From contig JAJTXY010000002.1 of NCBI GenBank assembly GCA_021463865.1, positions 64,219 through 128,218 of the forward strand: a stretch of DNA of 64,000 nucleotides. Reading direction: 5' to 3'. Positions 7,540-37,297 of the stretch are shown here, piece after piece. The notes beneath the pieces were generated by a model that was not told the origin of the DNA, did no database searches, and saw only the letters and a program-made list of their open reading frames with translations. This stretch comes from Anaerolineae bacterium (GTDB taxonomy: Bacteria; Chloroflexota; Anaerolineae; Aggregatilineales; J027). A program made the translations under genes and the position numbers. Each line of letters starts with the position of its first letter. Position 1 is the stretch's first letter.

Positions 7540-8763
7540 TTATTCGGCGAGAATTTCCTCGGCAATTGCTACTGAGTCTTCCAAAACCTCTTCCGGCAGC
7601 ATATTGCCAGCCATCGCTTCTTTCAGGCCATTGTTGAAGGTATCAATGAAGTCACCAAAACCAACAGGGAATTGCCAACGATGTGCATTGGCCGCACCTG
7701 TGACGAAGGCTTCGAATTCAATGCCACGAGTTTCCAGCCAGACTGCGGCGGCATCTTCACGGGCAGGCATGACACCAAAACCAGCTTCAGCAACCATCGT
7801 CGCACCTTCAGGGCCAGTCAGGAAGTTCGCCAAAGCCCATGATTCTTCAGGGTGATCGTTATCCGCAGCCACACCATAGCACACAGTAAAGGCCATCGTC
7901 GCTTCGCCAGCAGGGCCAGCAGGCAGTTCGACGACACCATACTCAATGTCAGGATAATTCTCTTCGAGGGCACCAATGACCCAGTTGCCTTCCATCGCCA
8001 TGGCAGCGCGTCCAGTACCAAAGGCTTCACCACCCCAGCCTGCATCGAGTTCGGAAGGGGGAGCAGCAATGCCATCTTCCACCATCCCCAAGTAGAGTTC
8101 AAGGGCGGTCATGGCTTCTTCACTGTCAAAGGTTACTTCTGTGCCATCTTCGCTCAACACCGAGCCACCGGCCTGATAGAGGAAGGGTAGCCAGCGCGGC
8201 AGTTCAGGCGGAACCACCAACCCTACAGTGTCACCGCTGGTGAGGGCTTCAGCGGCGGCGGTCAGATCGTCCCATGTCCAATCGTTAGTTGGGTATTCCA
8301 GTCCAGCGGCATCGAACAGGGCTTTGTTGTATTGCAAAGCCATTGTCGAAAAGTCTTTGGGTGGGCAATAAAATGTGTCATCAATGGTGAACACATCCAC
8401 TAGAGAGGGGAAAAAGCCTTCTGGGTCAACGATCATGTCACCCCCAGCGGCGATTACACCAGCGTCCACAAAATCGGGTAGGCGGCTGCTATCCACGTAA
8501 AAGACATTCGGCGCATCACCACTGGCAAATGCTGCTTGGAGGGTGGTGTCATATTCGGGGACAAGCTGTAAATCAACATTAATATTCGGATTGGCCTCTT
8601 CAAAGGCCGCAATCATTTCTTCGAGCGCCGCATTTTCGGCTGGGGAGGATGACCAACCCATCAATTGGATCGTCACGGTATCTTGAGCGCGGCTGGAGGG
8701 AACACGGGCGAAAAATGCGAGAGCGAGGGTTAAGACAAGTACGAGTGCTAGTGAGCGTTTCAT
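7540..8763 (-). CDS. sugar ABC transporter substrate-binding protein
   Basis: Signal peptide MKRSLALVLVLTLALAFF followed by family-1 solute-binding protein sequence. The ATG at 8763 has an AGGAGG RBS 6 nt upstream. Confidence 0.85.
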   Translation of the reverse strand: MKRSLALVLVLTLALAFFARVPSSRAQDTVTIQLMGWSSSPAENAALEEMIAAFEEANPNINVDLQLVPEYDTTLQAAFASGDAPNVFYVDSSRLPDFVDAGVIAAGGDMIVDPEGFFPSLVDVFTIDDTFYCPPKDFSTMALQYNKALFDAAGLEYPTNDWTWDDLTAAAEALTSGDTVGLVVPPELPRWLPFLYQAGGSVLSEDGTEVTFDSEEAMTALELYLGMVEDGIAAPPSELDAGWGGEAFGTGRAAMAMEGNWVIGALEENYPDIEYGVVELPAGPAGEATMAFTVCYGVAADNDHPEESWALANFLTGPEGATMVAEAGFGVMPAREDAAAVWLETRGIEFEAFVTGAANAHRWQFPVGFGDFIDTFNNGLKEAMAGNMLPEEVLEDSVAIAEEILAE

Positions 8764-22714: not shown

Positions 22715-24862
22715 TTACGGCTCAATCGTAAAGAGCATCCCAGCGCTACGACCATAGACCTCCGGGAAATAGAATTCCTGCCCAGTGGCCGGAATCACAT
22801 TAAACTGCCCCGGTAGGCCAAGACGCAGCCGATATACGTAAGTATAAGTTCCCGGCCCAAGATATGTCGCGTACAAGACCACTTTTTCATCACGCAATTC
22901 GGTATGCGAGAAATACCACCATCCCCAGTCGGCGCGGTCAGCTATTTCGAGATGGGGACGCTGACCGACAATACTCGTGGTCAACAGATGCGGGTCAACC
23001 GCTTCTGCACCAGCCGGAATGGGGTCTTCAATCACCACGTAATTGAGTGAACGCAGGGCTGTAATCGTCAGCATGACTACCACCTCATCGCCCACTTTGG
23101 CGCTGGTAATGGGTTGACGGGCAGGGTCATCCGCAAGGTAATATTGGCGCTCGATGGAGATACCCCGCGACGCTGGCTCAATTCCGGGCACATCCAAAAA
23201 CGTCGTCAGGTGGAGGGTGTAATACAGATTGCCCGGCCCTTCGCCATGCGTAATGACGACTTGATTGGCCTCATCCCACAATAATTCCTCGATCTCAACT
23301 CGCAGGCGCTGCGATTCGCGCACCGTATCGGGTGTCACTCGAGTATCTTCGGGCAGCAGTGCTTCGCCATTAAGATCAACGCCAAAAGCATAGTTGGCCT
23401 CAAGTTCGCGTGTCAGCAGCATCCAATCGGTGAGGGACATCACTGACCATGCGGTTTCTTGGGTCGTCTCCCATGCGTCGGCTTGACGTGCCGTCATCAA
23501 CCAACGTACCGCCCCCGGCAGTAGATCATTGGTGACATCATAATGCGCCAATGCCATCAACACCAAAGCCGTCGTGCGAGTATCGGTTGTCCAGTTGTAA
23601 TAATCAGGCCGATCTTCCCAATGAATCCCAGTCGCGCTCGCACTGCCCGCAAACGTGGCGGCACTCATGAAATCGCTCTTCAGCGTTTCAAGGCGCGGGT
23701 CGTTGGGGTCATTTGCCATCATGCTCATCATCAGAAACGCCTGTGCATCCAGATTTAGGCGGTGACGCTGCTCGTACATCAAGGTTAGACGCGCCGCATA
23801 GGTCGCCGAATCTAGGCCACTGGCGTAAGCGCTGCGATTCAGGGCATAGAGGATAAAAGCCCGTTGATTGAGTTTCCAATCCTGTAAATTATCGAGTCCA
23901 CCACTCCCTTCTTGCTGGGCGATATACCCGTACAAAAAGTCGCCGGCCCGTTCAATGACACTGGTATCAACGGCGGCAAAACCACTGTTACGCGCCTCAC
24001 TCAAACCAATGAGGGCATAGGCCGTCGTTAGGGGATTGGACGCATCGCCGGGGAACCAACCCCAACCACCATCGGAATGTTGAAGCGCATAAAGTCGCTG
24101 CAATCCAAAGATGACCTGCTGATTGAGATTTTGCTTCAGTTCCGGGTTCGATTGATTGAGTTCTGCGAGCGCCCGCATGGTCATGATATTGGGCAGAAAA
24201 CGACTGACCGTCTGCTCAATACATTGGTGCGGATAGTTTTGCAGATAGTTCAAACCGTCTAGCATCGGGCCTGCTAATGTATGATCAAGCCGGATGCGCA
24301 GACTGCCCCGTTCGGTGTCGGCTTGTTCAGGAAGTTCAATGGTTTCAGTAACCCGCCGCGCCTCTGGCCCATCCAAAACCCCCGCTGTGCCTACGGTTTC
24401 ATGGGCCACATATCGGTAGACGGGCAATAGGCGTTCATCACCTTGACCAAGTAGCGGTTTGCTACCATCGGTATAGGAACCATCTTCATTCCGAACAGTG
24501 AAGGTCGCATCAATATTTGAAACATCCAACACGACAATCGGCCAATCCACCCGCTGCCGCCCTTGTGCCGGAATGCTGACGGTCTGGATGAGGGTGACAT
24601 CATTTAACACCGTGAATCCTGTGCCAATCAATTCCACCTGCACGGTTTGCTCGCGTGGGGTGTTGTTGTTGACAATTGCGCCGATGCTGAGTTCATCGCC
24701 CACGACAAAAAAGCGCGGGGTAACGGGTCGAATCAGCAGGGGTTTGGTGCTGATAAAATCCGCTGTCGACTGCCCAACTAACATTGGCCCATCGGTGCCA
24801 GTTGTAATAGCACGGGCATCAATATGCCATGTGGTCAAATTATCGGGCAGGGTAATGCTCAC
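22715..24862 (-). CDS. alpha-2-macroglobulin family protein, C-terminal fragment (thioester domain); 3' part of a frameshifted gene
   Basis: Contains LPDNLTTWH, the thioester motif CIEQ (24212-24223), and the terpenoid-cyclase-like and receptor-binding-like C-terminus. The ORF's nominal 'M' is an internal GTG. Confidence 0.8.
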   Translation of the reverse strand: MSITLPDNLTTWHIDARAITTGTDGPMLVGQSTADFISTKPLLIRPVTPRFFVVGDELSIGAIVNNNTPREQTVQVELIGTGFTVLNDVTLIQTVSIPAQGRQRVDWPIVVLDVSNIDATFTVRNEDGSYTDGSKPLLGQGDERLLPVYRYVAHETVGTAGVLDGPEARRVTETIELPEQADTERGSLRIRLDHTLAGPMLDGLNYLQNYPHQCIEQTVSRFLPNIMTMRALAELNQSNPELKQNLNQQVIFGLQRLYALQHSDGGWGWFPGDASNPLTTAYALIGLSEARNSGFAAVDTSVIERAGDFLYGYIAQQEGSGGLDNLQDWKLNQRAFILYALNRSAYASGLDSATYAARLTLMYEQRHRLNLDAQAFLMMSMMANDPNDPRLETLKSDFMSAATFAGSASATGIHWEDRPDYYNWTTDTRTTALVLMALAHYDVTNDLLPGAVRWLMTARQADAWETTQETAWSVMSLTDWMLLTRELEANYAFGVDLNGEALLPEDTRVTPDTVRESQRLRVEIEELLWDEANQVVITHGEGPGNLYYTLHLTTFLDVPGIEPASRGISIERQYYLADDPARQPITSAKVGDEVVVMLTITALRSLNYVVIEDPIPAGAEAVDPHLLTTSIVGQRPHLEIADRADWGWWYFSHTELRDEKVVLYATYLGPGTYTYVYRLRLGLPGQFNVIPATGQEFYFPEVYGRSAGMLFTIEP

Positions 24863-24888
24863 TTGGGCCTCGCCATTGTCATCTGTAG

Positions 24889-27800
24889 CTACACTGGGTT
24901 CCCAGAGGGGGTATCTACAAAATCTTGCCGGATTTCGATAATCCCCGGATACCCACCGCCGCCGCCACCGCCGCCTTTGCGCCCATTGGTGACATATTGA
25001 ACGTAATCATCGGCAGAGATCGTTAAGGTAGAGGCCGTCATAATCCCCAAGCCGCGCCGACTATAAAAATATTCCAAGAGGGGTGGGCTATTGGGGGACA
25101 TAAGCCCTAGAACCGACAAATCCGTGACGCCAATCCCCACTTCGGCGCTCACCGGATTACCTGCCCAATCGCGGGTTTTTACATCAAGGGTGACGGTATC
25201 TCCCGGCCCGACGGTTTCAACACCCTCTGGCATAACGGGTGTGACTTCGACATCCATCACCAACCGCTCAGTATCAATCGTCAAAGGAATCATGCCAAAG
25301 CGGAACTGCGCGTAAGTCGTATGCTCGTCAATGCCCTTAACCAACATCACCGAAACATAGATATTGGGGGCATAGAGGTCTTCAATAGGCAGTTGATATA
25401 CATAGGAATTGGTGGTCATATGGATAATTTCGGTGCGCAAAAAGCTGTCGCGTTCCACCGTGACCAACGCGAGTGTTTCACCTTGAAATGGACTTGGTAT
25501 CAGGATTTGCGCCGTGTCACCGGGGCGATACGTATCGGCATCCGCAATCAAGGTGACACGATTATCATTACGCTGCCGCCATGAAACATATTCTGGGCTG
25601 GACACCCACATAAATCCACTGCTCAGGATTTCGTTACCTGCATCATCGCGCGAAGTGGCATACAGTTTATATGTCCCCCCGCGTGGCGGTACGTACTCGA
25701 CTTGACCCTTGCCATCGGCATCCAATGTTACTGAACCGCTGGCGACTTCGATCTCTTCCAAATCCCATGTCCACGCCATGCGTCCGTCGGTGTCTTTTTC
25801 CAACACACTTGTCCAGCGGCGCTCGACAATGCGGTATTCTACAACCTGATTCGGCACGGCTTGGCTGTCCCAATCCACTGCGATCATGTTGAAACGCGAG
25901 GTCTTGCCTGCCTGACTCAAATAGCTGTCCGGCGCAACGCCTACATAAACCTTGCCTTGATGCACCACCACCCGCACACGCCCCGCGACGGGCTGATTGC
26001 TTTCATCGGTGACGGTGGCCTCAATGGTATAAACTTGACTGCCGGGGTGATTGGCGGCTCCGGCGGGCAGACGGACGACAAAACGGCCTTCCGCGTCCGT
26101 TACACCTTCATCCTCCGATACTTTTTCAGCCCATACCCCAGAAGTCGTCTCGATGTAGTTCTCGGTATCGAGGCGGTCATAATCAAAATCTTGGAATGTC
26201 CAGCGCCCACGCCCCTGATAGTTAAAGTAATAGTCTTGGCCCAGTGCTACCCATTTAATTTGGGCATTGCTGACCGCGCCCCCAAAAAAGTATCGGGCAT
26301 CAATGGTTACATCTACCATCTCGCCCATCAAAACTTCATCGGCGGCTGGCACTGCCCGGACTTCATATTCTGGTGCGTGGTACTCGGCTACATCAAAGGT
26401 TAAACCCGGTAGATTCCAATAGTAACCCGTGTAGCGATTGTAATATTCCTGATAGCTGGGTAGGGCAACGGCAATGCGATAGTTACCACGACTGGCTTCG
26501 TCGTCCAACGTAAACTCGCCCGAAAACGACCCCTGCGGATTGACCTCAATGCGCTCTTCATAGATTTTCTGATTCGACGCATCATAGATTTCAATTGGTA
26601 CGGTTCGGTGCCCCGGCATGACGCTGTACAAAACATCGTTTTGTTTACGCAGGATACCCCGGAAATAGACGGTCTGACCCGGACGGTAGATAGGGCGATC
26701 ACTGTAGAGATACAGGCGTTGGTCACTCGGTTGATAATCCATTTGGATGTTAAAATCGCCGGGTTGGATACCGTAGATGAGACGGTTTGAGACAAAGCCA
26801 AAATGCTCAGGCGTTTGCACCACTGCATATAGGGTGCCATAGGTATCCAGTTTGGGTAGATCAACGATCACAAGACCGTTTTCATCGGTGCGCCCAAAAG
26901 CAACCACGCTGAATTTGTTGTCGTAAAATTTCACCAACAAATTGGGTTCAGGATTCCCCGTTTGCATGTTCGTAACCCAAGCAAGGGCTTCATGTTGACT
27001 GTACTTAAACGTGATATTGACTGTCGCTACAATCATCACATGGGCATTGGGTGGATAGCCGCGTTTATTGGATTGGGGCGAATTGACGTATAGCAGATAC
27101 GCCCCCGGTTCAAGGGCTTTATATTCGCCGTTTTCAATTAAAGGAACATCTGAGAGTGGCTCAACGAAATACGCGGATAGACTACCCTCTGGAATCCAGC
27201 CTTCAGTCTCATCCTCAAAGTTCTTGACCTTCCACCACAGATACCCCTCGGCACATAGCGGGCCATCTTGCACCCAGAAGGTCGTACCTGCCGGGTATTG
27301 GGTTACGGTATCGCTTGAAAAACTGGCTTCGGCATGAACCGGCAACGGACGAAGGTCATCGGCGGTCACACGGGCTTCAATATCCACAGTCAAACGCCGT
27401 GCAGCCACTCCCTGACAGGCGACATCTTCCAGACCGCGATCAACTTCTTCGGGTGAAATCAACACCATCCGGTCACGTGACACATTCAACGGGGAGGCCA
27501 CCGGGACCTGCCATGAGCGCAACCGTTGACCGGCGCGGTTATCCTGATTGGGTTGATTATTGCTGCGTGCCACCCCTGCCAGTGAGGGTAAATCTAGCCG
27601 ATAAAGTTGTAATTCAATGGTATTAATGTTGCGATGTGAGACAAACAAGCGTGTAGTGGGGTCATACGCATTGTACACCGCCATCATGCCGGGAACATTC
27701 AGCCTGAGCGACGGTTCATAGGCCCGTGTCGCAAAATTGATTTCGGTGGGTGTGGTGATTTCATTGCCGTACACATCCCGCATCCCCGGTTCTAGGGTAA

Positions 27801-29136
27801 TGGCGTAATTGACATTGGGCAGGCTTCGGAAAATCACAAAATAGGCATTCCGCCATTCTTCATAATACCCACCAATTTCACCTTCCGGCGCAGGGTCTAT
27901 CTTGATCTTATCGGCGATGCTGTCGGCATCCATTGGGGCATTAAAAAAGATGCTGAAACTGCCACCGGGGTCAACATTGCGTTCTCCATCGGCGGGATAC
28001 GTCCGATAATAATCAGGATAGGGTACGGTGCGTAAGGGCCGCAAATAGTCATTATTCAGTTCCGCACCCGTCATAGATCGCAGAACGGCATCATCCCCAA
28101 CCAGCAAATAAATCGAGTCTAGATCGAGGGTATCAAGCGTGCGGAGTCGAACCGTCCGACGATCCATTGACCATGAATATCCCATGCGTACCCTGTCCCC
28201 ATCCCAAGACTCAATATATAGGCCGTTTTGTGTAACTGGATTCATGGGCTGGGTAAAGCTCAATTCGAGAATGGGTTTCAGGGGTATATCAAATGGGGCA
28301 AAAAGTTCTCGCTCGGCAATCAATCGGTCAGCCGCATCATTCTCTTCTTCGGTATGACGCACACGCGGCGCATTCAACACACGGGCATTGGCAAATGTGG
28401 GTTTGACGGTGGAAAAGCTAAACTGATAATCCTCTTCCAATACCGCGTCGGTGGGGGTTTTGAGTCCGGCGTCAATTGTAACGGTATAGGTCGTTCCGCC
28501 AATAAATCCCTGTTCGGGCTTGAACGTATAGATCGAAGTATTGAGCCATTCGCCTGTCCCAGTCGTTTCTGGTTCGATGTGTATCGGGTTAACCAGATCA
28601 GCCTGATAGCCAATGCTGGAAAGGGGTACAACTGGACGGTTAAAGATCACCGTAACGACAGTATCTGTGGAAACATTGGTAGCCCCGTTTCCCGGTAGGA
28701 CTTCCGATATTTGCAGAGAATTCGTGGTGAATAAATGAAGCCGATAAGCAGACTCCATTGGGATATGTTGTGTATCCTCGGCAAATACGCTGAAGATCAG
28801 GTCGCTGTCGGTTGGATACCCTTCGAGTGGAGGGGAAAACCTGAGAATACGCCCCCCGTCCACCCATTCCCATACGCCACCTTCCACAGCGGGATCAACA
28901 CTAAAGAGGCCGCCACTTTCCACATTCATGGGACGGTCAAAGGTAAACTCGACTGAACGTTGGAGGCCTAGCTCTTCGCCATTTTCCGGCGATGTTTCAA
29001 TAATCTTTGGTGCAATGTTTCCAGACTGATTGGGTGGAGAGGCCTGTGGAGAATTCGGTCTAATGAGGGCAAAAATAGCAGTGCAGATTATCAGCGCCAA
29101 TGGTAGAGATACCAAAACACGCCTGTGCTTCAACAT
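24889..29136 (-). CDS. alpha-2-macroglobulin family protein, N-terminal fragment (membrane anchor, Ig-like/MG domains, SH3-like insert)
   Basis: The ATG at 29136 has a GAGGGGAG RBS. TM/signal anchor MLKHRRVLVSLPLALIICTAIFALI. It ends ...RQDFVDTPSGNPV* just where A2M proteins continue F-x-D/E-T-x-x-W. Confidence 0.8.
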   Translation of the reverse strand: MLKHRRVLVSLPLALIICTAIFALIRPNSPQASPPNQSGNIAPKIIETSPENGEELGLQRSVEFTFDRPMNVESGGLFSVDPAVEGGVWEWVDGGRILRFSPPLEGYPTDSDLIFSVFAEDTQHIPMESAYRLHLFTTNSLQISEVLPGNGATNVSTDTVVTVIFNRPVVPLSSIGYQADLVNPIHIEPETTGTGEWLNTSIYTFKPEQGFIGGTTYTVTIDAGLKTPTDAVLEEDYQFSFSTVKPTFANARVLNAPRVRHTEEENDAADRLIAERELFAPFDIPLKPILELSFTQPMNPVTQNGLYIESWDGDRVRMGYSWSMDRRTVRLRTLDTLDLDSIYLLVGDDAVLRSMTGAELNNDYLRPLRTVPYPDYYRTYPADGERNVDPGGSFSIFFNAPMDADSIADKIKIDPAPEGEIGGYYEEWRNAYFVIFRSLPNVNYAITLEPGMRDVYGNEITTPTEINFATRAYEPSLRLNVPGMMAVYNAYDPTTRLFVSHRNINTIELQLYRLDLPSLAGVARSNNQPNQDNRAGQRLRSWQVPVASPLNVSRDRMVLISPEEVDRGLEDVACQGVAARRLTVDIEARVTADDLRPLPVHAEASFSSDTVTQYPAGTTFWVQDGPLCAEGYLWWKVKNFEDETEGWIPEGSLSAYFVEPLSDVPLIENGEYKALEPGAYLLYVNSPQSNKRGYPPNAHVMIVATVNITFKYSQHEALAWVTNMQTGNPEPNLLVKFYDNKFSVVAFGRTDENGLVIVDLPKLDTYGTLYAVVQTPEHFGFVSNRLIYGIQPGDFNIQMDYQPSDQRLYLYSDRPIYRPGQTVYFRGILRKQNDVLYSVMPGHRTVPIEIYDASNQKIYEERIEVNPQGSFSGEFTLDDEASRGNYRIAVALPSYQEYYNRYTGYYWNLPGLTFDVAEYHAPEYEVRAVPAADEVLMGEMVDVTIDARYFFGGAVSNAQIKWVALGQDYYFNYQGRGRWTFQDFDYDRLDTENYIETTSGVWAEKVSEDEGVTDAEGRFVVRLPAGAANHPGSQVYTIEATVTDESNQPVAGRVRVVVHQGKVYVGVAPDSYLSQAGKTSRFNMIAVDWDSQAVPNQVVEYRIVERRWTSVLEKDTDGRMAWTWDLEEIEVASGSVTLDADGKGQVEYVPPRGGTYKLYATSRDDAGNEILSSGFMWVSSPEYVSWRQRNDNRVTLIADADTYRPGDTAQILIPSPFQGETLALVTVERDSFLRTEIIHMTTNSYVYQLPIEDLYAPNIYVSVMLVKGIDEHTTYAQFRFGMIPLTIDTERLVMDVEVTPVMPEGVETVGPGDTVTLDVKTRDWAGNPVSAEVGIGVTDLSVLGLMSPNSPPLLEYFYSRRGLGIMTASTLTISADDYVQYVTNGRKGGGGGGGGYPGIIEIRQDFVDTPSGNPV

Positions 29137-29347
29137 TTGAAATCTCCCCTCGTCAAAATTACTTTTCACGAGGTTATAACATGGGGCTGATGCTTCTGTT
29201 GAACGCGCAGGCCACGTCTATTCAATTGCTACCCCATGCCCGTCTTCCAAAAAGCTGACAAATAGCTGACGTGGTTAATTTACGCTAGGTGGTCATTGAA
29301 TTAATTGTTTCATGCGGAAAAACTGAAGGGGTTTTTTTGTGCCGATC

Positions 29348-30742
29348 TTATTGGCTTAATATTGTTTTTGCCTCTTTTATCACCTCGACCAAATCAAGAT
29401 TTTGGCCTTGCTGGGTGATTTGCATATACTCGTCGGTTTCTAATTCTCGGCAAATGGACTCAAATAAGCGACGATTGAGATGGATGGCATACCGATGCAG
29501 AACGCCCGTCCATCGTGCCGCTTGTTCATATTCTTGACCGTGCCAGAAAAAATGAACCACGATAAGCAGCGTTTTTGCCAAATAGGGTTCAATCCCAAGC
29601 TGAAGAGCAAGTTCAATAGCCTCCATTATGGCTTGGCGGGCTGGTTCATACCGATTTTGTAGAAGGTCTAAGTATGCCATATATCCTCGCGTAAGGCAGA
29701 CATAGTAAGGGGTCTTTCTTTGGCGGGCCAATTCAAGGGCTTCTCGATAAGACTTGGTCGCTGCCTCAAAGTTACCGCAGTATGTATAAATATTGCCCAG
29801 ATCAATCATCCCGCTCACCACCAAGTTTTTCATATTGATCGAGTCGGCAATTTGGATACCCTCTTGATAATGGCTAATGGCAGAATCCAGCTTATCCTGT
29901 TCGACTTCACACATCGCCAAACTAAGCAAGGCAGCGGGCAGCATTCGCATAAATCCAACATTACGGCATATTTGCACGGATCGTTCGGCTTGCTGTTCAG
30001 CAGTGACAAAATCTTGCAGGGAGACAAGACTGTTGCTAAGGGTCAGCAGAGCGACGCTCAACTCTCCCTCGCGGCCTGTTCCCTCTACGATTGCCAAATA
30101 TTTGGCAAAATAATCGTATGCCAACTGATAGTCGCCGCGAAAATGGGCCACTCGGCCAATCCCCTGATAAACACGACCAATTTCGGCGGTTGCTTGGCAT
30201 TTTTCAAATAGAACGAGCGCCCTATTTAGCAAATCTTCCGATTCATCGAACTTGCCTAGTTGTTGGGCAACCGACGCCAATGTATAGTAAGCTCGCCCCA
30301 TACTTAAGACATCTTTGGCCCGTTGACCTAAAATCAATAGTTGGTTGGCAAGCTGTGTGGCTTGTTCGGCTCGAGCCGAATAAAAATGGGCCTGTGCAAG
30401 ATGATGTAATATAGTACACTGAGCCTCAGCATTTCCGACCAGAATCGCCGCATCAAGTGCCTGTTGCAGCCATGTTACTCGTTCGGATGGCGTTTGGCGC
30501 ACTCTCAAAATATCAATTCCCGCAATCGAAAACTCTACGCATAACTGAGCCTTGTCTAGCTCATCCGCCGCACTAGCCGACCATGCCTGCCATTGACGGA
30601 TTTGACTCCAGTCCTGCTCAATCTGGTTATACCAATAGGTGCGGTTGCCATGTCCACGCCGAAAGGCCGTATTTGCCTGTTGCAGACGAGTCACATAATG
30701 TTGAGCCAGCCGATATTGAACGGTACCGCCAGAAGATGCCAT
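29348..30742 (-). CDS. tetratricopeptide (TPR) repeat protein, sensor-like partner of the upstream NB-ARC protein
   Basis: 464 aa of TPR-like helical repeats. Its start ATG overlaps the upstream stop as TAATG. Confidence 0.75.
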   Translation of the reverse strand: MASSGGTVQYRLAQHYVTRLQQANTAFRRGHGNRTYWYNQIEQDWSQIRQWQAWSASAADELDKAQLCVEFSIAGIDILRVRQTPSERVTWLQQALDAAILVGNAEAQCTILHHLAQAHFYSARAEQATQLANQLLILGQRAKDVLSMGRAYYTLASVAQQLGKFDESEDLLNRALVLFEKCQATAEIGRVYQGIGRVAHFRGDYQLAYDYFAKYLAIVEGTGREGELSVALLTLSNSLVSLQDFVTAEQQAERSVQICRNVGFMRMLPAALLSLAMCEVEQDKLDSAISHYQEGIQIADSINMKNLVVSGMIDLGNIYTYCGNFEAATKSYREALELARQRKTPYYVCLTRGYMAYLDLLQNRYEPARQAIMEAIELALQLGIEPYLAKTLLIVVHFFWHGQEYEQAARWTGVLHRYAIHLNRRLFESICRELETDEYMQITQQGQNLDLVEVIKEAKTILSQ

Positions 30743-32565
30743 TAGTTCATCACCTCATCCAAAAGCGAACGTGCGTGTAAGACCAAGAGGGCGTGCATTT
30801 GGAAGCGTCCCCCACCAACGGGTTCTAAGAGACCACGATTGACCAGTAATCTTGCAATCGGTTTCGGGTCGTCTACCTCCCATACGACGGCCATCGCAGG
30901 CAGATCAAATGTCGCAGGTTTAGCAACAAATAATCCCAAATATGCGAAATACTGCCGGGTTAAGGCATCGAGCGAATCCGTACTGCGTTTGAGAAGTGCA
31001 GTAATTGTCAGCGAGGTATCGGACTTGACGCCCAACATATCACTGGGTGCTTGGGCGGTCAGCAAGCTGGCACCCTCTCGCAAATCAGCCAATAATTCAG
31101 TCACCCCCCAGCCCAATCGAGCCTCGCTTTGTAACAGACGGCCTGCCACATGGATCGCCAACGGCAGACCTTCGAGGTCACGCACCAATTGCGTGGCTTC
31201 ATCAAGTTGATTTGCAACAGTGTCAGGAGTGAACTTTGCCAATAGTTCCAGTGCGGCATGTTCGGTCAAGACGGGTAGGCGATAAATATCGGTGGCCGTC
31301 GGAGCAAGAGCAGTCGCCACGTCATTTAAACGACTCGTCATCACCAAAGTACAGTTTTTTCCCCCGACCCGAAACGGTTGGGCATGATCCGCCTGCCACA
31401 CATCATCCACAATCAGCAGCATTCGTTTGTCACGCAGCAGCGCCGTCAATTGGGCACTAATTTCCTCGACGGTGCGGGCTTGGCCGGGTTCATTCAACCG
31501 CAATGCTTCTGCCCAAGCTCCAATCTCACTGGCGATACTGGGGTTTTCACCCAATGAGGCCCATAAGACACCATCAGGATAATGCTGGCTGAGTTCCACA
31601 TCGTGGGCCAGTGTTGCCACAAGGGTGCTTTTGCCGACACCCGGCCAGCCTTGAATAACGGTGATTGGACGTGCTTCCGGACTACCCACGCCAAGCCGTT
31701 GCTTAATCGCATGGAGCGCAGCATCACGTCCCACCAAAAGCGATGGCAGGGGCGGCATCACCCCCGAAATCGGCGCACTAATCGAGTCGGTAGACGATAC
31801 CAGCGTGGGATTTCCCTGTTGAATGGCCTCAAAAAGTCGGGTGGTCTCGCTTTCAGGAGGGGTAGCAAGTTCACTATCCAAAATTTCCACACACTGGCGA
31901 TATTGGCGTAACGCTTCTGATCGCTGACCATTCGCAGCATATAAACGCATCAAGTGGCGATGAGCAGGCTCATGTAGGGTATCAACTGCCAACCACTGGA
32001 TGGCATGGCGAATCGCTTGTTCATACTGATCCAAGTCAGCATAATAGTGGGCCAAGCGGCGTTGGACATCAGCATATTCACGCCGCAGCCATTCGCGTTG
32101 GGCTAACTGCCAGTTCTCAAATTCCAAATCATCCGGCAGGTTGAACCCAATCAAAAAATCATCGCTATAGAGTGTTGCAGCTTGTTGATAAAAATCTACA
32201 CAATCTTTACAAATGCTATCCGAACTGTGCGGATGGGCGCTATTCGCTACTAGTAGTTTTTGGAAAGCGATCACATCAACCCATACCACTTCTCGTTTGA
32301 GGCCAATGGTCATACGATCTGCTTGAATCCATTCTATCTCCACCGCCTTGGTTAGCGACCTTAGGGCACTTCGCAAAGCTGACCGCGCATGATCCTCGTC
32401 TTGATCGGGCCACAATAAACTGGCGATAACCTCGCGGCTCTGCATTTGTTCGGACAATGCGAGATAGGCGATAAGGGCCACGGCCTTGCGGCGTTCAACT
32501 TTGACAGATGTGCCTTGAAATTCGATGCGTGGGGTTCCTAACAGATACACCCGCAAGTCACTCAT
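30742..32565 (-). CDS. SARP-family regulator: OmpR-type winged helix + BTAD + NB-ARC (STAND) ATPase
   Basis: N-terminus MSDLRVYLLGTPRIEFQG...RRKAVALIAYLAL and a BTAD helical region. P-loop GWPGVGKST, Walker B LLIVDDVW, and a GLPLAI motif. Confidence 0.85.
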   Translation of the reverse strand: MSDLRVYLLGTPRIEFQGTSVKVERRKAVALIAYLALSEQMQSREVIASLLWPDQDEDHARSALRSALRSLTKAVEIEWIQADRMTIGLKREVVWVDVIAFQKLLVANSAHPHSSDSICKDCVDFYQQAATLYSDDFLIGFNLPDDLEFENWQLAQREWLRREYADVQRRLAHYYADLDQYEQAIRHAIQWLAVDTLHEPAHRHLMRLYAANGQRSEALRQYRQCVEILDSELATPPESETTRLFEAIQQGNPTLVSSTDSISAPISGVMPPLPSLLVGRDAALHAIKQRLGVGSPEARPITVIQGWPGVGKSTLVATLAHDVELSQHYPDGVLWASLGENPSIASEIGAWAEALRLNEPGQARTVEEISAQLTALLRDKRMLLIVDDVWQADHAQPFRVGGKNCTLVMTSRLNDVATALAPTATDIYRLPVLTEHAALELLAKFTPDTVANQLDEATQLVRDLEGLPLAIHVAGRLLQSEARLGWGVTELLADLREGASLLTAQAPSDMLGVKSDTSLTITALLKRSTDSLDALTRQYFAYLGLFVAKPATFDLPAMAVVWEVDDPKPIARLLVNRGLLEPVGGGRFQMHALLVLHARSLLDEVMN

Positions 32566-32578
32566 TGGTCTCGTCCCC

Positions 32579-32623
32579 CTGTCACGATTCTGTCACCAAG
32601 CTGTCGCGCAGCTTCCCTATACT
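32579..32623 (+). promoter_or_regulatory. candidate SARP-dependent promoter: CTGTCAC-N4-CTGTCAC-N4-CTGTCGC-N10-TATACT
   Basis: Heptamers at 32579-32585, 32590-32596 and 32601-32607 with an 11-bp period. The -10-like TATACT is at 32618-32623. Confidence 0.5.
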
Positions 32624-32821
32624 GACCGTCAATCAAGCAATGCTTGAGCTGTGTGCCAGTCAGCAATGTTTCCACCCATTGTAGTGGAATTTGCAGCACG
32701 GCGTTTCCTAGCAACTAGATTGCACATGGCAATGACCCTGTAATCGTTGGACAGCCGTACTGGATAGGCTCCATTGCTGACAATGCCACATTTCGTTGGA
32801 TCAAAGGGTTGGGAGAATATC

Positions 32822-35383
32822 ATGCGAATAGCAACAAATGAGTCTCGTGCAGTGCGGACATCTGTCATTTTACTGGCAGTAGTCGCCATCTTGTTTTTTC
32901 TAATTGGCTGGCCGGCCCATTCGCAGGAGCAGTCAAGTCAACGGATTGAGTCGGACAATGCGTTGGTCACTCGTGAAGGCAACTGGTCATCCCAAGCAGC
33001 CGCAGCAGCCAGCGACGGAACCTATCTCTATTCGAGTGGGGCCGAAGGGGATGTGCTGGAATTGGAGTTTGTTGGCACGACATTGGAAGTCATCTATATC
33101 GCTGGGCCAGCCTTGGGTACATTGGCCCTCGAGGTGGATGGCACAGTGCTGCGAACAGTCATCACGAGGGCTGACCAAACCGCCTATGGACAAAGCACTA
33201 TCATCAACTATCTGAGTAATGAACCCCATATGCTCCGAGTCTATGCCCAAGAGGGCGGCATCGTGGCGGTAGATGCTTTTGTCATCTCCATTGAAGACGC
33301 CACCGATAGCACTACGAGCGGCGCACCCGACGAGGAAGGCGGGATTTTTGCCAGCACCTGTACCCCGGTGAATGCCATTCATCGTGTCAGCCTCAACTAT
33401 CAAAATGAGCAGGTGTCCGGTGCATTTACCAATAGTGACTCGGCTCTATCGGAAGATGGGCGTTTTGTCGCCTTCGAATCTGCTTCATCGGAATTGGTAG
33501 CAGGCGATACCAATGGCCTGATTGACATTTTTGTGTATGACCGCCAAACCTGCCAAATAAGCCGGGTGTCTGTTGCCAATGATGGTACAGAGGCAACCTT
33601 GTCATCAGCTAATCCGGATATTTCAGCCGATGGGCGCTATGTCGTATTCGAGACAAACGCTGAGTTGGTTAGTGCAGATTCCAATGGTGTCAGCGATATC
33701 TACATGTATGACCAAGAGACTTTTGAGATCACTCGTATCTCGCGGGCTAACCTTGCCTTTCCTCAGGCGAATGGAGCTTCACATAACCCGACAATTTCTG
33801 GCGATGGGACACGCATTGCCTTCGAGTCTACCGCAACTAATCTTGTGACGGGTGATACCAATGGCGAATCAGATATTTTCCTGCGTGATCTCACCGCCGG
33901 TACGACAACGCGAGTCTCACTGACCAATGCAGGCAATGAAGCGACAGGGGGTGGCTCGTTCATGCCAGATATTGCCTCAGCGGGAGATCATGTCGCGTTT
34001 GAATCCGAGGCGACCAATCTGGTGGCAAATGATAACAACGGTGAACGTGATATTTTTGCACGAGCACTGACGGCGGGCACTACTATCCGTGTGTCCATAC
34101 CATCCGGTGGGGGCCAAGCCAATGGCAATTCATGGGATCCGGCGATCTCGTCCAATGGTACGATCATCGCATTTGAATCGGACGCGACGAACATGGTGGC
34201 AGGCGATACCAATAATTTCCGGGATGTGTTTGTGCGTACCACCAGCGGTACTCCCACTACCTCACTGGTTTCAGTCTCGACAGCCGGGGTACTAGGCGCA
34301 CTCCCATCAGCTAACCCTGCGATTGCGAATGGCGGGCGTCAAATCGTCTTTGAATCCGATTCCCCCTTAGCCACTGAAGACACCAATGGTTGGACAGACA
34401 TCTATGTGCGTGACCGCGTTGCCAATACGACAACCCTCGTTTCGATAGCACGGGATGGAACACTGGGGGATGACAATACCAGCTACCCAGCTATTTCGGG
34501 CAATGGCAATTATGTGAGCTTTGAATCAGAAGCAACCAATCTGATTGCGGGGGATACGAACGATGATCCTGATATTTATGTTGCGCCGCGTTTCCCCACA
34601 CCTGCCGACAATCTCGCGGTGTTCAGCCCCAATTTCCAAATTGTTGGACTAGTAGATGGGTTGGGTGACCCACCTGCGGCAGATGACTATACATTCTATT
34701 CAGCCTACGCGCCTACCACTGGTGGGCAGTGGGTCATGGGTGATTGGGACAGTGATGGCCTAGAAACCCCCGGGGTCTACAGTAATGGCGCGTTCTTCTT
34801 CACCAATGAACCGGGTGAGACAGAGGATTGGGAACTGCTGTGGATTGGTGTAACCGGGTCGCCCGTCACTGGACGACTGGATGCAGCCATCACCAATGAC
34901 TGTATTGGAGTCGTCGAAGGGGCTGACTTTCCACCCTACGGAATGGCCTTTGTTCTCTACTACACCTGCGACCTATCGGGTAATCTCCTGCCTACCATCG
35001 GTTTCCAATGGCTGAGTGTCCTGTTGCCCGACTCGGCAGGCTTTATCGGCACGCATCAGTTCTCCGCAGGCGATTTTGATGGGGACGGTGTGGCAACGAT
35101 TGCGTGTCGGCGCGGAACTTCGATTACATGGACTAACGATGCAGCCACGACAGGCGCTGGAGGCTTCCCGTTAGGGCAATATATCGGCGCACCGGGCATT
35201 AGTGATGAAGGCTCTTTTGTGGCGGGCGATTGGGATGGTGATACTATCGCATCATTTGGGCTGTATTATCAAGATGGCGAATTCTACTATCGCCACGATC
35301 TCGATTTCAACTCAGGGGTGTATTTCAATCAGTCGCTTGGGGTGCCGTTGGCAGGCGTAACACAGGTCTCAGCTTGGCGATAG
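32822..35383 (+). CDS. secreted/anchored protein: N-terminal beta-sandwich-like region, seven PD40 (TolB-type) beta-propeller repeats, C-terminal FG-GAP/VCBS-like repeats
   Basis: The ATG at 32822 has a GGGAGAA RBS. TM/signal TSVILLAVVAILFFLIGW. Seven repeats fit the pattern DGxxVAFES.A.NLV.GDTNG..DI(F/Y).(R/Y)D. Three GDWD(S/G)DG-like repeats are present. Confidence 0.7.
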   Translation: MRIATNESRAVRTSVILLAVVAILFFLIGWPAHSQEQSSQRIESDNALVTREGNWSSQAAAAASDGTYLYSSGAEGDVLELEFVGTTLEVIYIAGPALGTLALEVDGTVLRTVITRADQTAYGQSTIINYLSNEPHMLRVYAQEGGIVAVDAFVISIEDATDSTTSGAPDEEGGIFASTCTPVNAIHRVSLNYQNEQVSGAFTNSDSALSEDGRFVAFESASSELVAGDTNGLIDIFVYDRQTCQISRVSVANDGTEATLSSANPDISADGRYVVFETNAELVSADSNGVSDIYMYDQETFEITRISRANLAFPQANGASHNPTISGDGTRIAFESTATNLVTGDTNGESDIFLRDLTAGTTTRVSLTNAGNEATGGGSFMPDIASAGDHVAFESEATNLVANDNNGERDIFARALTAGTTIRVSIPSGGGQANGNSWDPAISSNGTIIAFESDATNMVAGDTNNFRDVFVRTTSGTPTTSLVSVSTAGVLGALPSANPAIANGGRQIVFESDSPLATEDTNGWTDIYVRDRVANTTTLVSIARDGTLGDDNTSYPAISGNGNYVSFESEATNLIAGDTNDDPDIYVAPRFPTPADNLAVFSPNFQIVGLVDGLGDPPAADDYTFYSAYAPTTGGQWVMGDWDSDGLETPGVYSNGAFFFTNEPGETEDWELLWIGVTGSPVTGRLDAAITNDCIGVVEGADFPPYGMAFVLYYTCDLSGNLLPTIGFQWLSVLLPDSAGFIGTHQFSAGDFDGDGVATIACRRGTSITWTNDAATTGAGGFPLGQYIGAPGISDEGSFVAGDWDGDTIASFGLYYQDGEFYYRHDLDFNSGVYFNQSLGVPLAGVTQVSAWR

Positions 35384-35415
35384 GGCATACCAATCAACAT
35401 CCCTTGCTTTCTACA

Positions 35416-35448
35416 AAGGTCGGGTTACAAAGCCCGGCCTTTTTGTTT
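35416..35448 (+). terminator. Rho-independent terminator of the propeller gene
   Basis: AAGGTCGGG / CCCGGCCTT. 9-bp stem with one G-U pair and an 8-nt loop, followed by TTTTGTTT. Confidence 0.7.
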
Positions 35449-35450
35449 AG

Positions 35451-35495
35451 GCGTCATACAGTTGTCACGTTTCTGTCGCGCCGTTTTTTTATACT
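35451..35495 (+). promoter_or_regulatory. second copy of the heptamer/-10 module: (GCGTCAT)-N4-TTGTCAC-N4-CTGTCGC-N10-TATACT
   Basis: Heptamers at 35451, 35462 and 35473 with an 11-bp period. TATACT is at 35490-35495. 21/27 identity to 32601-32627. Confidence 0.45.
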
Positions 35496-35501
35496 AACCT
35501 C

Positions 35502-35583
35502 TGTCTTGATCACCTTGCACTTGTATTGTCTCAACCCTCCTCATCCGCTCCCACTTTTTGTAGGGGTTGAGACATACCTTTTT
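35502..35583 (+). ncRNA. candidate small RNA (orphan unit of about 80 nt between the module promoter and a hairpin + T-run)
   Basis: No credible ORF or RBS. TGTCTCAACCC (35527-35537) pairs with GGGTTGAGACA (35564-35574). The loop is C-rich (CCCUCCUCAUCCGCUCCCAC), followed by TACCTTTTTG. Confidence 0.3.
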
Positions 35584-35588
35584 GAGAA

Positions 35589-36470
35589 TTAGCCCAATTC
35601 CCTATTCCGGGTTTGGCTCATTAGATGGATATAACCATCTTCCAGACTTGGCTCAGTGGATACGGCGTTCGGGAAAGCTCCTGCATCCCCGATCACCCGA
35701 TACTGCGTCCCTTGCGCCAATTGAAGTGTGGAGACCACTTTTAGACCGTGATTCGGGCGTTCTCCATCCGTCACAATGTTCCAGACCTGTCCACGTGTTT
35801 TTTGGATTAACTCATTGGGCGCACCCCGAAACAGCACAGTTCCGTTATACATGATAGCCAAATCACGGCAACTTTGGCTGATATCTTCAATGATATGGGT
35901 TGAAAGAATCACCGTCGCATTTTCTGCCAGTTCCGAAAACAGGTTTCGCAGCCGTACTCGTTCTTCAGGATCAAGTCCTGCCGTTGGTTCATCCACAATA
36001 ATAAGCCGAGGATTGCCGATGAGGGCCTGCGCGATGCCGATACGCCGTTTCATGCCGCCAGAATAGGCCTTTAGTCTGCGGTCTGCTACCTCGGTCAAAT
36101 GCACCTTTTCTAAGGCTTCCTGTACCTGCCGCCTGCGCTGCTGGCGATTGGTAACGCCCTTCAAAATAGCGACATAATCTAAAAACTCGGCGCCCATCAA
36201 ATGCGGATAGAGGCCAAGTTCTTGTGGCAGATACCCTAATATAGCTTTGGCGGCTTGTTTACCTTTTAGGGTGTGCATATCGTGTCCGTTGACCTCGACG
36301 CGGCCAGTCGTCCAATGCAGCAATCCGGCGATGATTCTCATGAGACTGGTTTTGCCCGCGCCATTTGGCCCAACCAATCCAAACATCCCAGTCCCGATTT
36401 CAAGCGAAATATCATTCAGTGCCGTGACATCACCTTTATAGATTTTGGTGAGATGTTCAATTTTAATCAT
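35589..36470 (-). CDS. ABC transporter ATP-binding protein
   Basis: Walker A GPNGAGKTS, signature YSGGMKRR, Walker B LIIVDEPTAGLD. Start is the ATG at 36470 (MIKIEHLTKIY). The longer ORF overlaps the upstream gene. Confidence 0.9.
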   Translation of the reverse strand: MIKIEHLTKIYKGDVTALNDISLEIGTGMFGLVGPNGAGKTSLMRIIAGLLHWTTGRVEVNGHDMHTLKGKQAAKAILGYLPQELGLYPHLMGAEFLDYVAILKGVTNRQQRRRQVQEALEKVHLTEVADRRLKAYSGGMKRRIGIAQALIGNPRLIIVDEPTAGLDPEERVRLRNLFSELAENATVILSTHIIEDISQSCRDLAIMYNGTVLFRGAPNELIQKTRGQVWNIVTDGERPNHGLKVVSTLQLAQGTQYRVIGDAGAFPNAVSTEPSLEDGYIHLMSQTRNRELG

Positions 36471-36481
36471 GGTTTTCGCTC

Positions 36482-37297
36482 CTAATGCTGTTCCTTCCAA
36501 CGCATCCAGCCCCACATTACTACCCCTATCAAGGCAAGCTCGCCTATACCGACGACTGCTGCAATAACCGCATCCGTGAGCGCTCCTGTTTGGTTGACCC
36601 GAATATAGTAGGCAAAAATCGGCCAACGCAGCGGACTGATGAAATCCCAAAGGTCAGCGCTTTCCTTTATGTTGCTGTCCATCCCCAGAAAATTCGGCAG
36701 GATAAACATACAACCAATGGTTAGCAGGACGGCCCGTAGACGATTAGGTTGAGTAGCCGTGAGCAAGACCCCCATTCCCCCATTAAGCACTGTCAAGATG
36801 CCCAAACCCAGTATCCACATGCTGATATAGGGTAGGGGCTTATAACTTCCCAGAAAAAACCACCATAGCACACCCGTAATCACCATTAGGACAAAATTTC
36901 CCCATAACACCGCCGCCCATACCCCCATAACCTTCCCCCACAAATAAGTGCTGCGTGACACCGGAAGGCTACGGAACAGCTCTGAGACCCCACTCTGCCG
37001 ATCAAGCGGAATGGTATCGGCGACACCAATGGGCAAAATAAATCCGAGGGTTACTGCGCCGACAAACCACGTGGAAAAAATAGCAAACCACGTGTTCAAC
37101 TCAGCATCTGATAGCCCTGTCTCACTCTTGACTGGCCCATACACATTCTTCTCAAAGTCTTCGGTATGTTGGAGTAAACTGGTAATCACGATGAGCGCAA
37201 AAAGGGCATTCATCAATATCTTCAATGCACGCCGTCGCCAGTGCATTTTCAACTCGTACCAAACCATGCCGCGCAGTTGATATGTAACCCTGTTCAT
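36482..37297 (-). CDS. ABC-2-type-like transporter membrane protein
   Basis: 271-aa protein with about 6 TM segments, immediately upstream of the ATPase. ATGA overlap with the preceding gene. Confidence 0.55.
   Translation of the reverse strand: MNRVTYQLRGMVWYELKMHWRRRALKILMNALFALIVITSLLQHTEDFEKNVYGPVKSETGLSDAELNTWFAIFSTWFVGAVTLGFILPIGVADTIPLDRQSGVSELFRSLPVSRSTYLWGKVMGVWAAVLWGNFVLMVITGVLWWFFLGSYKPLPYISMWILGLGILTVLNGGMGVLLTATQPNRLRAVLLTIGCMFILPNFLGMDSNIKESADLWDFISPLRWPIFAYYIRVNQTGALTDAVIAAVVGIGELALIGVVMWGWMRWKEQH

Follow-up and report, generated by a model that had tools for sequence, protein, structure and literature searches.

A SARP-box promoter and hairpin without a gene in an Anaerolineae genome are probably the orphaned promoter and 5' leader of a deleted beta-propeller paralog

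Background

The presence of a promoter followed by a hairpin and a run of T residues, with no gene behind them, raises the question as to whether such a locus encodes a small RNA. In the 64-kb stretch of DNA analysed here (the window) this arrangement lies on the + strand at 35451-35583, between a beta-propeller gene and a convergent ECF-sigma/ABC operon, and an earlier note made from the sequence read it as a small RNA dependent on the SARP-type regulator encoded nearby. In promoters of this class the direct repeats are spaced by 11 or 22 bp, the 3' one keeping a constant, short distance to the -10 element, and the afs box spans positions -40 to -19 (PMC10936776). We looked at the promoter, the predicted RNA and the equivalent loci of related genomes in order to ask what the element is and where it came from.

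Results

The regulator is encoded on the minus strand (30742-32565) as an AfsR-like large SARP protein of 607 aa with an OmpR-type DNA-binding domain, a BTAD domain (Pfam, 5.7e-21) and an NB-ARC domain (Pfam, 3.1e-24), and its residues 4-602, which include the N-terminal DNA-binding domain, align to the AfsR structures 8k60 and 8jke (phmmer, E = 2e-20). A TPR partner ORF of 464 aa with matches to Pfam TPR_12 and TPR_MalT is found on the same strand at 29348-30742, its start overlapping the stop of the regulator ORF. As the same split between regulator and TPR ORFs is seen in L003, L131, L132 and L133 it looks like a natural two-gene arrangement and not a frameshift. Also on the minus strand is an alpha-2-macroglobulin-like gene (22715-29169), present in the window as two ORFs (715 and 1426 aa) separated by a gap at 24863-24888 and in L131-L133 as one unbroken gene of 2140 aa; the interruption could mark a pseudogene or be programmed.

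On the + strand the heptamers CTGTCAC, CTGTCAC and CTGTCGC, repeated with an 11-bp period and followed by N10 and TATACT, make up module 1 (32579-32623), the promoter of the propeller-1 gene, which is identical at 45 of 45 positions between the window and the relative CFX5. Propeller-1 (32822-35383, + strand) encodes an 853-aa PD40/Tricorn_N beta-propeller protein and is preceded by a conserved leader of about 190 nt (32624-32821). The window and CFX5 share 96.5% identity over this leader, which three further lineages conserve to a similar degree, against a difference of about 30% at four-fold sites. A long structure is predicted for it, Rfam gives no match, and it could be a cis-regulatory RNA. 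The gene is closed by a canonical intrinsic terminator at 35415-35449 (+ strand; stem 35415-35442 and T-run, -17.8 kcal/mol), as the earlier note had reported, with 0-3 differences per 35 nt across six lineages and a homologous terminator in L005.

Directly behind this terminator module 2 (35451-35499) reads, in order, gcGTCAT (35451-35457), N4, TTGTCAC (35462-35468), N4, CTGTCGC (35473-35479), N10 and TATACT (35490-35495). The box proper occupies 22 bp of the + strand (35462-35483) and consists of the 11-nt direct repeats TTGTCACgttt and CTGTCGCgccg, the downstream one ending at 35483 with 6 nt between it and the -10 hexamer, and this hexamer continues into a conserved nACC (aACC in the window; 35490-35499, + strand) so that TATACTnACC is common to module 1, module 2 and L005. 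With a transcription start at 35502, assumed as 7 nt past TATACT, the box falls at exactly -40 to -19. No -35 hexamer accompanies it, in that no sigma-70-type -35/-10 pair was called at module 1 or module 2. CTGTCRC-N10-TATACT occurs at exactly two sites in the 64-kb window, both on the + strand and corresponding to the two modules, and a looser two-repeat scan of the window recovered only the same sites. Recounted by hand, 35473-35499 of module 2 match 32601-32627 of module 1 at 21 of 27 positions, the figure originally given, and the coordinates, N10 gap, TATACTnACC stretch and lack of a -35 that had been described for module 2 all hold on rechecking. The heptamer series described with them stands in part: two good heptamers keep the 11-bp period, but the most upstream, gcGTCAT (35451-35457, + strand), is degenerate and not conserved, reading CCCTAT in CFX5 and lying in a stretch (35451-35461) with 0-5 differences per 11 nt between lineages. 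It is probably not a working repeat, which leaves module 2 with two.

Because the regulator can be aligned with AfsR over its full length and relatives carry the same architecture before genes, module 2 is classed here as a genuine AfsR/SARP-type promoter, predicted to be activator-dependent and to function without a -35. The second copy of a regulator-dependent promoter on which the small RNA proposal was built is real; it is conserved in six lineages and its cognate SARP regulator adjoins.

Transcription from 35502, an inferred start, would yield a leader RNA of about 77-82 nt (35502-35583, + strand) made up of a 21-nt single-stranded 5' tail, a hairpin and a U-run. The tail contains the motif CCTTGCAC (35513-35520, + strand), which is identical in the window, in MAG_03 (L103) and in both leaders of L005, and which reads TCTTGCAC in four other lineages. 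The hairpin (35523-35578, + strand) was first described as an 11-bp stem pairing 35527-35537 with 35564-35574 ahead of a T-run; this core is present and extends to a 14-bp stem with one bulge around a C-rich loop of 26 nt (35538-35563), with a minimum free energy of -20.7 kcal/mol and a z-score of -3.0. A single C separates it from UUUUU, the T-run (35579-35583, + strand) having five T in the window and six in the orphan lineages B and D described below.

Every version of the leader hairpin gives a similar fold, the z-scores ranging from -3.0 to -4.3. When the window and L005 types were aligned with RNAalifold the stem was kept and 3 of 12 pairs were changed on both sides yet still paired, although the comparison involves only two independent sequence types. 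These compensatory changes (U-A to C-G once and A-U to G-C twice, relative to L005) provide the covariation in orthologous loci that the earlier note had suggested looking for, and the G-U pairs of the L005 stem can form on + strand RNA only. The anti-Shine-Dalgarno-like CCUCC pointed out in the loop did not hold up across relatives, being private to the window with CUUCU in five sister lineages.

The absence of a credible ORF or RBS downstream was borne out. The only open frame over the leader (35374-35592) enters from the propeller stop and is affected by 1-nt indels in lineages B and D, and a small ORF of 28 codons from TTG at 35506 to TAG at 35592 was rejected as it has no RBS, its frame enters from upstream and it is hit by the 1-nt indels of B and D. 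An Rfam search returned no family at the gathering score; the sole sub-threshold match, isrK (20.9 bits vs 50, E = 0.15), fell on the propeller terminator in minus-strand orientation and was discarded. A covariance model of the leader (R1), built from 8 homologs and run over the window and 28 loci, matched only its training sequences and so gave no further copies in these loci, and by the same search the propeller-1 leader is not homologous to that of module 2. Pattern scans of JGI metagenomes with the module plus CCTTGCAC and with the 5' stem arm gave 0 matches each.

In other genomes the same architecture stands before genes. L003 is syntenic; its TPR and BTAD-NB-ARC genes diverge from the targets, and each of its five modules (three nTGTGAC repeats, N10 and TAnnnT) immediately precedes a gene. 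The genes concerned are an 85-aa ORF, a P460/cupredoxin protein, two tandem propellers and a kinase/response-regulator operon. L005, a contig from a more distant relative, has two TGTCAC modules, each before an 850-aa propeller gene in a tandem array, and L006 has two GGTGAC modules before two more propellers. The order in L005 is particularly informative for the window, as a terminator (GGTCGGGTT..GCCCGGCC and a T-run) is followed by two heptamers, TATACTgACC, CCTTGCAC, a hairpin with a C-rich loop and ACCTT..TTTTT, and then immediately by CAGGAG and the ATG of an 850-aa propeller. The two L005 leaders occupy 2367-2502 and 7941-8076, between promoter and RBS of the propeller gene, and from these comparisons the hairpin and T-run of the window are predicted to form a conserved, structured leader at the 5' end of propeller paralog mRNAs. 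Except in the orphan state, every module observed has a gene behind it. The module search in related genomes that the earlier note had advised thus places the architecture before genes in L003, L005, L006 and lineages C, E and F; the note had also held that its reading would fall if orthologous intergenic regions had no module, and in six lineages the core promoter is conserved there.

The boxes vary with the regulator/propeller set, being TGTCRC in the window and L005, TGTGAC in L003 (8183-15520) and GGTGAC in L006 (4690-4740 and 7490-7540), with the same 11-bp period and the same N10 spacer before the -10 throughout. This pattern suggests that regulator and box may have diversified together. 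Propeller homologs in L127-L130 have no such module; the genes for these proteins of about 850 aa (47-49% identity) come immediately after those of large Ser/Thr-kinase STAND proteins (nSTAND1/WD40 or AAA_16/TPR), and the propeller family seems to be generally coupled to STAND/NLR-like signalling proteins. In a contig pattern scan most of the matches listed were unrelated look-alike tandem repeats. Among them, TGTCAC-N5-TGTCAC-N10-TATACT is found before apparent ABC-transporter ATPase starts (MEILKIENLTKVYG...) in many Firmicutes MAGs, including L014, L019, L024, L079, L095 and L124. These are probable OmpR-family response-regulator sites, in which case the architecture represents a general winged-helix activator layout and is not specific to SARPs.

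The locus was then compared in six lineages, which are colinear with about 90% DNA identity; the 90% cluster of the propeller includes several species-level variants. Three have the element in an orphan state, namely A (the window), B (L131) and D (L027, CFX5), and three are gene-bearing, namely C (L103, MAG_03), E (L132) and F (L133). After an identical promoter and hairpin C, E and F continue with AGGGAttgtgatttcttATG, a vestigial RBS and ATG with a broken frame, which aligns with CAGGAGcgtgacctATG of L005. They next carry a propeller remnant ending ..GNIGVQVAIWR*, matching the propeller C-terminus, then an intact PD40 paralog of 718-720 aa with its own AAGGAG, and then the convergent ABC gene. 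The segment absent from A, B and D measures 2,483 bp in C and about 2.4-2.5 kb in E and F. A, B and D have a common junction, ACC(T)TTTTTGAGAATTAGCCC, at 35584-35593, where blastn alignment breaks between 1387/3871 of the reverse complement of L103 and 35583/35594 of the window, and the convergent ABC ATPase gene (35589-36470, minus strand; 293 aa as called), the last of the ECF-sigma/ABC operon, adjoins it.

On this comparison the window, L131 and L027 appear to share one deletion of about 2.5 kb that removed a propeller paralog and fused the leader to the 3' end of the ABC gene. As C, E and F carry the paralog behind the same leader and A, B and D are without the segment, module 2 and the hairpin are best read as the promoter and leader of the lost paralog. 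The remnant between the leader and the 718-aa gene is a third-paralog pseudogene, comprising the C-terminal 40-60 codons or so up to ..VAIWR* (L103 6404-6600, minus strand; L132 7790-7925; L133 7790-7975) and shorter in L132; its presence in C, E and F implies that the ancestor had at least three tandem propeller paralogs.

The deletion state disagrees with the tree of the flanking genes, in which the split ABD|CEF is backed by 2 sites and ABC|DEF by 25, and the propeller paralog is accordingly described here as a presence/absence polymorphism in a recombining complex. Between window positions 34784-36493 and L027, L103 and L131-L133 the sequence is a recombination mosaic, with some 100-nt blocks at 0-2 differences in lineages otherwise about 10% diverged. 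Divergence of such mosaic flanks cannot date the deletion.

Among the six lineages four-fold sites diverge by 0.24-0.34 and the spacer at 35384-35414 shows 3-21 differences per 31-37 positions. By comparison, in all 15 lineage pairs the core promoter (35462-35495) has 0-2 differences per 34 nt and the stem arms have 0 per 30 nt, the entire element (35462-35583) differing at 2-8 of 122 positions. Variable columns number 10 of 122 in the element vs 246 of 424 four-fold sites (58%; p = 7e-25), a conservation that is expected where the element serves a gene. Pooled private changes of the orphan lineages amount to 4/366 vs 57/1272 at four-fold sites (p = 0.0015), a contrast confounded by recombination. 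Those of the window by itself (3/122 vs 18/424, p = 0.59) are indistinguishable from neutral, and they fall in the spacer, at the base after the -10 and in the loop, where the change creates CCUCC. Although 58% of four-fold sites are variable, only 3-6% are private to one lineage. Decay would be expected of a pure relic, and the intact stem and core promoter and the low pooled private changes in three orphan lineages hint at a retained function; another way for the orphan element to stay intact would be gene conversion from gene-bearing alleles.

Discussion

We consider it quite likely that module 2 and its hairpin are the orphaned promoter and 5' leader of a deleted beta-propeller paralog and not a purpose-built small RNA gene. 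In the sequence of events we propose, an AfsR/SARP-box promoter with two 11-nt direct repeats at about -40 to -19 followed by TATACT would have driven the structured leader of a tandem propeller paralog, that is a single-stranded tail, a 14-bp hairpin and a U-run, until one deletion of about 2.5 kb took everything from the vestigial RBS onward, including the 718-720-aa paralog, and joined the leader to the 3' end of the ABC gene. Given an active neighbouring regulator, RNA polymerase would still start near 35502 and would either stop at the hairpin and U-run, releasing a leader RNA of about 77-82 nt, or continue into the ABC gene in antisense. The predicted product of the orphan locus is probably a short transcript of the leader alone, and the antisense direction of any read-through to the 3' end of the convergent gene follows from position, as had been pointed out. 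What stands of the regulator-dependent small RNA first proposed is the promoter copy and, in the window, a downstream region holding only a hairpin and T-run; by origin the element is the leader of a paralog kept in C, E, F and L005. A dedicated stand-alone small RNA unit is contradicted by 3 of 6 lineages and by L005, in which the element is the leader of a gene. On the hairpin as an efficient + strand terminator the observations point both ways, with a 14-bp stem followed by a C and U5 in its favour and against it the 26-nt loop and a position within the 5' UTR in C, E, F and L005; in gene-bearing alleles, as part of the 5' UTR, it would not terminate transcription both efficiently and constitutively.

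Whether the orphan has since gained a use is a separate matter. That promoter and leader have been kept by selection as a regulator-controlled non-coding RNA, either trans-acting or restraining the ECF-sigma/ABC operon in antisense, is an idea we hold only tentatively. The trans-acting version, an exapted SARP-dependent leader RNA of about 80 nt that was retained after the deletion and pairs with other mRNAs or binds a protein, we regard as unlikely. It would fit with the undamaged promoter core and stem of all three orphan lineages, with pooled private changes below the neutral rate, with a hairpin that ends 1 nt before U5-U6 and a predicted fold that leaves the 21-nt 5' tail free, and with the longer T-run of B and D. 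However CCUCC, the seed put forward, is present only in the window among the six lineages; the window's own private changes (3/122) match the four-fold rate (18/424, p = 0.59), the window and 28 loci searched contain no further copy and Rfam no match, and the same sequence is equally conserved as a 5' UTR, so its conservation needs no small RNA role.

It is more doubtful still that the element is an antisense or transcriptional-interference device, in which read-through past a weak hairpin lowers expression of the ECF-sigma/ABC operon upon activation of the regulator. The T-run and the ABC stop codon lie only 5 nt apart, a 26-nt loop with five U makes a poor terminator, and the hairpin must be passable because the paralog is downstream of it in C, E and F; yet B and D have lengthened the T-run, which favours termination, and since the paralog of gene-bearing alleles already faced the ABC gene in convergent orientation, the conservation needs nothing new. 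We think it highly improbable that the locus is untranscribed, with the hairpin serving only to terminate the minus-strand ABC operon and the repeats left as a silent or decoy binding site. The hairpin does begin 15 nt past the ABC stop codon and, all its pairs being Watson-Crick, would form on minus-strand RNA too, but the minus strand has no U-run after it (AAUACAAGUG), the stem is equally invariant in C, E and F, where it is about 2.5 kb from the ABC gene, and the conserved -10 and repeats are left unexplained.

The orphaned leader and its regulator can be set against several known systems. As in the AfsR/SARP promoters of Streptomyces (the afs box of afsS, actII-ORF4 and DnrI targets) the repeats of module 2 have an 11-bp period and overlap the -35 position, the 3' repeat is at a fixed short distance from the -10, and a regulator with an OmpR-type DNA-binding domain, BTAD, NB-ARC and TPR is encoded next door. 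The host, in contrast, belongs to the Chloroflexota (Anaerolineae-like) and is not an actinomycete, and its box is a predicted one; the repeat core, TGTCRC, differs from the sequence of the afs box, the TPR part has an ORF of its own, and the predicted targets are secreted PD40 beta-propeller proteins in place of the antibiotic clusters of the Streptomyces SARPs.

SreA and SreB of Listeria are riboswitch-derived small RNAs that arise from 5' UTRs and attenuators. The window resembles such RNAs in that a promoter, a leader hairpin and a U-run can release a short RNA without a downstream gene; it differs in that the downstream gene has been physically deleted and in that its RNA is predicted from sequence. 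In common with orphan promoters and pseudogene remnants in tandem paralog arrays it has intact relatives, a defined junction and a remnant of another paralog in C, E and F, but unlike such relics its functional parts show no decay in three orphan lineages.

Conclusions

AfsR-type (NLR-like) regulators with readable cognate boxes appear to occur outside the actinomycetes, where in Chloroflexota they would control families of PD40 beta-propellers. For small RNA prediction the locus is a warning that what remains of a deleted gene can take the form of a promoter, a hairpin and a T-run with no ORF. With three lineages each way, the natural presence/absence polymorphism offers a ready comparison for the gain of function by orphaned leaders, and if such a gain is true here it would represent a bacterial small RNA born from the 5' UTR of a deleted gene and wired to an NLR-like, AfsR-type regulator.
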